DNA from: Escherichia coli
GTDB taxonomy: Bacteria > Pseudomonadota > Gammaproteobacteria > Enterobacterales > Enterobacteriaceae
Length of the DNA: 20,747 nt
Strand: one strand, 5' to 3'
NCBI RefSeq assembly: GCF_003334765.1
Contig: NZ_QOWT01000049.1
A program made the position numbers and the translations under genes. The notes beneath the pieces were generated by a model that saw only the letters and a program-made list of their open reading frames with translations, was not told the DNA's origin and searched no databases. Positions 87 to 466 of this stretch are shown piece by piece (position 1 is the stretch's first letter; each line of letters starts with the position of its first letter).

Positions 87-466
87 ATGGCTGATTTTAC
101 TGGTGAAATGCATAGACTCATTTCTGAATATTTGCAGTGTAAGCGACGTAAAGATCAATCTGTTGAGCCCCCCCTTTATATTATCTCTGGAGCAGGGAGG
201 CTGTGGCTAACGATACCACTCCTTATCTTATGGTGCTGCTACTTAATAACGATGTCTGGTGTAAGAGTCGTGAGGTGGTGGTTCTCAGAAATCTGATTGA
301 GCAGGCGTGGGGAAAAGTATTGGATGAAGATAACTCCATTACATATCTGGTTGTGTATCCTGAAGTGCTGACGTTGGTATTTGATGCAGCTAACACATAC
401 AACGCTGAGCCTGGTGTACTGGAACAGACGGCCCGGGCTTACATTGAAATCACATGGTGCCATTGA
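87..466 (+). pseudogene. Hypothetical ORF in two pieces (87-296 and 203-466), apparently split by a frameshift at a C7 homopolymer (168-174)
   Basis: Two overlapping same-strand ORFs in adjacent frames; the second frame opens directly after a stop at 164-166, next to the C7 run. No recognisable motifs. Could be a decayed gene or a homopolymer sequencing error. Confidence 0.2.

Follow-up and report, generated by a model that had tools for sequence, protein, structure and literature searches.

Near one edge of a 20,747-nucleotide stretch of Escherichia coli DNA (contig NZ_QOWT01000049.1; hereafter, the window), two short open reading frames (ORFs) overlap in adjacent frames beside a run of seven cytosines. 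Are these the fragments of one broken gene, two genuine small genes, a gene switched by the length of the run, or the product of a miscounted base? Homopolymeric tracts that drive phase variation by slipped-strand mispairing (contingency loci) are well established in Neisseria, Haemophilus, Campylobacter and Helicobacter. To our knowledge, E. coli is seldom credited with this mechanism and is not known to rely on it, and we know of no instance in which switching of this tract has been observed.

We consider it highly probable (roughly 0.93) that positions 78-494 of the window are a non-functional pseudogene of the YagK/YfjJ family carrying three independent lesions, and that the cytosine run is a fixed scar and not a switch. 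On this reading, the two ORFs would be accidental open stretches left behind by the three lesions.

The split reading frame

Direct reading of the sequence places a TGA stop codon at 164-166, followed by a G and then by the C7 run at 168-174. Both ORFs lie on the + strand: the first spans 87-296 (69 aa, ATG start) and the second 203-466 (87 aa, GTG start). Addition of a single C to the run produces one ORF of 126 codons, extending from the ATG at 87 to a stop at 464-466. The description in the earlier note, which had the run beside the stop codon, the two ORFs overlapping in adjacent frames and a one-base change yielding a continuous ORF of about 125 aa, thus agrees with both the sequence and the ORF list. 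Its choice among pseudogenisation, a phase-variable switch and a sequencing error is a separate matter, upon which the composition of the run has little to say. The window contains two C or G runs of at least seven bases, against 1.4 expected from first-order Markov simulations, and the C7 run is therefore unremarkable on composition alone. That the frameshift is real follows from homology to an intact orthologue, rather than from the composition of the run.

An intact and constrained ancestral gene

Comparison with orthologous loci, the check that the earlier note had proposed, revealed an intact gene of 188 aa, encoded in a single frame, in related genomes. Window positions 78-494 correspond to the 3' two-thirds of this gene, a member of the YagK/YfjJ family ('inovirus-type Gp2', PF11726). 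Homologous DNA, 95-97% identical, occurs in one Salmonella enterica record and in approximately 800 complete E. coli genomes, where the product is annotated as 'inovirus-type Gp2 protein' or 'YagK/YfjJ domain-containing protein'. Intact 188-aa ORFs are found in Salmonella and in E. coli strains NRZ14408 and SCU-172, with a 189-aa version in OkiPb01717, and tracts that are in frame and interrupted by a purine are present in at least 730 E. coli genomes (545 plus 187). The Pfam model PF11726 (YagK_YfjJ_C) matches the intact protein (E 9.1e-10) and also the window translation after repair at both frameshifts (E 2.4e-8), in the latter case spanning the position of the tract. Among intact alleles, pN/pS in the ancestral frame is 0.26-0.37, and the ancestral gene is therefore a real, constrained coding sequence. 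Neither the intact protein nor the fragments matched an NCBIfam model, a sequence search of the PDB returned chance matches only (alpha-lactalbumin, E of at least 0.1), and a literature search on YagK/YfjJ found no functional study.

The family takes its name from YagK and YfjJ of the K-12 cryptic elements CP4-6 and CP4-57 (PF11726, formerly DUF3296 or 'Inovirus_Gp2'), with which the gene described here shares both the Pfam match and the setting, an integrase-bearing, tRNA-associated island. In Salmonella and in many E. coli, moreover, the intact gene adjoins a paralogue of the same family and zinc-ribbon genes. Unlike YagK and YfjJ, the 188-aa protein is divergent, scoring a Pfam E of about 1e-9 over model positions 26-135 of 170, and the window copy is a fragment with three lesions. 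The 'replication initiation' label attached to the family is a database name and not a tested activity.

In the Salmonella locus (L001, 2209-3417), a full-length YagK/YfjJ paralogue of 204 aa (PHROG 25019, E 1.5e-59) precedes the 188-aa gene. The corresponding upstream paralogue in E. coli has shrunk to an annotated fragment of 65 aa (1047-1244 in loci L012 and L013), and the arrangement looks like a tandem pair, both members of which are decaying.

Aligned by tblastn to positions 1-600 of the window, the intact 188-aa protein falls into three co-linear pieces that pass from frame 3 to frame 2 and back to frame 3. Residues 51-81 lie in frame 3 (78 to about 170), residues 83-174 in frame 2 (173-448; 95.7% identity over 92 aa, E 1e-64) and residues 175-188 again in frame 3 (450-491), where they are followed by a stop codon at 492-494. 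Membership of the PF11726 family would call for a full-length ORF of about 190-210 aa, in place of which the window copy retains codons ~51-188 distributed over three frame segments. Judged by its predicted translation, then, the window copy is a remnant of a PF11726 member and not a functional member.

Three lesions in the window copy

The first lesion is a 5' truncation. Positions 1-77 (+ strand) are the right end of an IS1 element, ending ...GGAGTCATTACC, and an IS1A transposase is annotated just upstream in 042, E24377A and other strains. Homology to the gene begins at 78, at about codon 51, which puts the junction between the IS1 right end and the gene at 77/78, and codons ~51-80 of the ancestral gene occupy 78-167 of the + strand in frame 3, as seen both by tblastn with the NRZ14408 protein and in DNA alignments. 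Gone from the window copy are the first ~50-53 codons, the promoter, the ribosome-binding site, the start codon and the upstream island genes. The ORF bounds given in the earlier note consequently need revision at both ends: the ATG at 87-89 is no start codon but the internal Met54 of '...IPSLMADFTGE...', and the ancestral stop is the one at 492-494, not that at 464-466.

No target-site duplication was found at the IS1/gene junction, and in 042 the left flank of IS1 is integrase-proximal intergenic DNA and not the 5' part of the gene. The missing 5' part would have been removed by an IS1-associated adjacent deletion. The locus resembles known events of this type in that IS1 directly abuts a truncated gene, the target-site duplication is lacking and the other flank is unrelated DNA; as in other decaying islands, the extent to which nearby island genes are truncated also varies from strain to strain. 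Measured against ordinary IS1-linked decay there is nothing unusual here, an IS1-less derivative generated by a 5-bp microhomology deletion being a small extra. This derivative occurs in 55989, UMNK88, H3, ETEC1749 and UPEC69, whose junction reads ...GGGAACA-GG-TGATG-GCTGATTTT, with the GG of the IS1 left end kept and the CCCTCTC of the gene lost. We considered the IS1-less junction as the ancestral form and rejected it, as the IS1 form has seven more gene bases and the IS1-less form retains two bases of IS1. Copies that keep the GG and miss CCCTCTC are therefore derived from the IS1 form, through a deletion between 5-bp TGATG repeats.

With the native start codon lost and no sigma-70-like promoter match on the + strand upstream of 87, we infer that a functional product is absent; transcription may nonetheless run out of IS1 into the remnant. 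There was no Rfam match within 87-466.

The second lesion, a loss of one base, is the C7 tract itself (168-174, + strand). Alignments show that the in-frame form of the tract is 8 nt long, CCC[A/G/C]CCCC: intact alleles read GAG CCC [A/G/C]CC CCT (E-P-T/A/P-P), and the window is one base shorter. In most relatives the tract is broken by a purine, as CCCACCCC or CCCGCCCC, an interruption that the earlier note had overlooked, although slippage at the homopolymer, as it had implied, is plausible given the C7-C11 alleles found elsewhere. The history of the tract would have begun with replacement of the purine of CCC[A/G]CCCC by C, giving a C8 intermediate that replication slippage then most likely shortened to C7; the alternative route to C7 would be deletion of the purine itself. 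Within the first ORF (87-296, + strand), positions 87-167 alone are ancestral coding sequence, and 175-296 represent out-of-frame read-through.

From 175 to 446 the + strand carries codons ~83-174, now in frame 2 (by tblastn), which are the real coding content of ORF 203-466. The third lesion follows at 447-449 (+ strand), where alignments show AAA in place of the AA of intact alleles, a gain of one base that returns the frame to 3. By offsetting the -1 at the tract, this +1 puts the final 14 codons (SHGAIERHLGCSDF) into the original frame again; with the ancestral stop at 492-494, they occupy 450-494 of the + strand, as seen in tblastn, in ORF 381-494 and in the intact proteins. It is because of the +1 at 447-449 that ORF 203-466 ends 28 bases short of the ancestral stop.

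Constrained intact orthologues on the one hand, and disabling lesions at 77/78, 168-174 and 447-449 on the other, argue from sequence for a pseudogene. Pseudogenisation, one of the three possibilities raised in the earlier note, is hence the one that gains support, to which the IS1 truncation and the second frameshift, both missed at the time, have to be added. No pseudogene flag is attached to the locus in RefSeq, where ORF 203-466 stands as a protein. The pseudogene is a routine case of decay at the border of a pathogenicity island, by known mechanisms and with little biological weight.

The tract across Escherichia coli

To place the C7 run among its relatives, exact matches of short queries spanning the tract were counted in 5,426 complete E. 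coli genomes, the C7 query being a 36-mer that contains the run and for which an exact match was required. The two purine-interrupted forms account for 545 genomes (CCCACCCC) and 187 genomes (CCCGCCCC). Uninterrupted tracts are much rarer: C7 in 48 genomes, C8 in seven, C9 in eight, C10 in 13 (four verified by reading) and C11 in one (verified). Annotation treats the products of the C8 and C11 alleles as intact proteins. Out of frame are 69 of the 77 uninterrupted alleles (about 90%), a proportion more suggestive of decay than of a balanced switch.

Every one of the 48 genomes of the window's lineage has exactly C7. The C7 copies inspected number 12, from 11 genomes and the window; their sources are humans, pigs and chickens on several continents. 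All 12 have the truncation point, C7 and A3 in common, and none of them, representing 11 of the 48 C7 genomes plus the window, combines C7 with an intact 5' end. The lineage has meanwhile accumulated SNPs and gained or lost IS1 while its tract stayed C7. Fixation of C7 in the lineage therefore excludes a sequencing error and gives no sign of switching.

A homopolymer error, by which the true sequence would be C8 and the gene continuous, was a natural suspicion, homopolymers being error-prone on several platforms. We assign it next to no probability, since the same C7 36-mer recurs exactly in 48 independent complete genomes, including 042, 55989, E24377A and many O104:H4 assemblies from different laboratories, and since the inspected C7 genomes also share the second frameshift and the truncation. 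Those of 042, 55989 and E24377A are capillary-era assemblies.

More can be said for phase variation, in which slipped-strand mispairing on the poly-C run would turn the gene ON at C8 or C11 and OFF at C7, C9 or C10. Like established contingency loci, the window has an uninterrupted poly-C run (C7, 168-174) inside a coding region, albeit an ancestral one; uninterrupted alleles of every length from C7 to C11 are present in E. coli; otherwise identical alleles of the C9-C11 group vary in length; and lengths 8 and 11 give an intact ORF, annotated in the C8 and C11 alleles as an intact protein. In the haplotype group with C9-C11 the gene is otherwise intact, and two synonymous SNPs just 3' of the tract are common to this group and the window lineage. 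Three pairs of loci within the group have zero mismatches and differ in tract length alone: ECCTRSRTH03 (C9) and Res13 (C10) over 3.0 kb, S1-CHI-01-A (C9) and ST69 (C10) over 3.0 kb, and S19-651 (C10) and OkiPb01717 (C11) over 2.3 kb, the tract lying at about 1512-1522 of each paired locus (L012/L015, L019/L017 and L014/L018). Because these pairs differ in nothing else, the tract, once the purine has been lost, is the fastest-changing character of the locus. Among haplotypes that keep the 5' end intact, the one closest to the window lineage is that of strain A24, in which the tract is C10 and the extra A of the third lesion is absent.

Such a pattern marks the uninterrupted tract as a probable hotspot, either of slippage or of assembly error, and homopolymer errors of long-read assemblies could cause part of the C9-C11 length differences. 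The rate of slippage climbs steeply with homopolymer length, which fits the pattern seen. Even in the C8-C11 alleles with an intact 5' end, we think it unlikely that the tract is a slipped-strand contingency locus, ON at C8 and C11 and OFF at C9 and C10; if it were, the C7 of the window would be a tract frozen after truncation of the gene.

For the window copy itself, a switch is more doubtful still, and we regard it as very unlikely. In contrast to contingency loci, there is no length variation in the window lineage, the variation being confined to the C9-C11 haplotype group; the tract remained C7 in 48 of 48 lineage genomes despite SNPs and the gain or loss of IS1. Nor does any tract length restore the window gene: C8 would yield the 126-codon ORF, without the N-terminal ~50-53 codons and the promoter and with a frameshifted C-terminus. 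Across the species, most tracts are interrupted by a purine and stable, and those that are uninterrupted are, as counted above, largely out of frame. The phase-variable switch suggested in the earlier note accordingly finds no support at this locus, where the tract is invariant and C8 leaves the gene broken. The invariance of C7 in 48 genomes, set against C9-C11 differing in otherwise identical loci, does illustrate the relation between the length of a tract and its stability.

Small genes, recoding and the annotation of ORF 203-466

Could one or both ORFs, particularly 203-466, be expressed as independent proteins? The 87-aa ORF is called as a CDS by PGAP in all lineage genomes, a GGGAGG motif at 195-200 lies 2 nt upstream of the GTG at 203, from which translation might begin, and the GAA to GAG change that creates this motif is common to the C7 and C9-C11 haplotypes. 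That change is, however, synonymous in the ancestral frame, the 2-nt spacing between the Shine-Dalgarno-like motif and the start is poor, and no promoter-like site was found upstream. ORF 203-466 is, furthermore, co-linear with residues 93-174 of a longer protein and owes its end to a frameshift, and the sole evidence that it forms a family, PHROG 32179, is the same fragment. We consider genuine small genes highly improbable.

Annotation of the fragment deserves comment. RefSeq lists ORF 203-466 as a 'hypothetical protein' (WP_001387038.1), and PHROG 32179 is a profile of 87 positions that matches only the stretch of this ORF, corresponding to residues 93-174 of the intact protein. From these sequence matches, it appears that a piece of a pseudogene has been passed on as a protein 'family'. 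As a point of annotation hygiene, the 87-aa entries WP_001387038.1 and WP_001406640.1, together with PHROG 32179, would best be treated as pieces of a pseudogene and not as a protein family. The remnant has a modest use of its own: the combination of IS1 junction, C7 and A3 is a marker of the tRNA-Phe island of the 042 / 55989 / O104:H4 / E24377A type.

Least credible of all the alternatives is programmed recoding, whereby a fused protein would arise through a ribosomal frameshift of -1 or through slippage of transcription on the C run. Both frames would indeed be joined by such a shift or by a single C added to the mRNA, but in relatives one frame with an interrupted tract encodes the whole protein, and recoding is therefore not conserved. 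The zero-frame sequence CCC CCC CTT, moreover, is not an X XXY YYZ heptamer, and the native start codon and the coding region upstream are both gone.

The island and its other features

Positions 1-1000 of the window match the chromosomes of 042, several FORC and NCCP strains and NCTC9082 at 100% identity, and those of O104:H4 outbreak strains at 99.9%. The 042 copy of the region follows immediately 3' of tRNA-Phe and a tyrosine integrase, and the window extends to the pic autotransporter gene; the remnant is at the integrase-proximal end of a pic-bearing tRNA-Phe island of the 042 / 55989 / O104:H4 type. A 117-kb island at pheU is described in the 042 genome paper (PMC2808357), in which Pic appears as Ec042-4593.

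Relative to 042 (NC_017626.1), the window has two single-base indels and lacks the IS30 that 042 carries near 13410. At 2159-2163 the window has A5 and 042 has A4, an SNF2-like ORF being intact in the former and split in the latter; at 8920 the window has an extra G, and a methyltransferase gene is likewise intact in the window and split in 042. Either 042 has frameshifts in these two cluster genes or its sequence contains errors there.

Downstream of the remnant, at about 545-910, lies the relic of a ColE1-type plasmid replication origin inside the chromosomal island. Within it are an RNAI match at 753-858 (+ strand, Rfam 59.9 bits) and a second C7 run at 583-589. RefSeq annotates a 48-aa 'replication initiation protein' at 572-718, within this non-coding stretch of the origin; the ORF is probably spurious. 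The ColE1-type relic is also found 3' of the intact gene in A24 and is therefore an old part of the island family.

The next gene, DUF2931 (932-1525, - strand), is annotated at 197, 172 or 146 aa depending on the strain in which this island is found, a difference that points to further decay close to the island's edge. Between it and the SNF2-like gene, a match to the Hfq-binding small RNA isrK occupies 1721-1800 (- strand, Rfam 56.8 bits, above the gathering threshold). Beyond this point, from 1918 to 12699, the + strand is given over to five large co-directional ORFs, named by RefSeq as SNF2-related (955 aa), AAA ATPase (334 aa), S8 peptidase (795 aa), DNA methyltransferase (542 aa) and DEAD/DEAH helicase (956 aa), which look like a putative phage-defence or restriction-type cluster.
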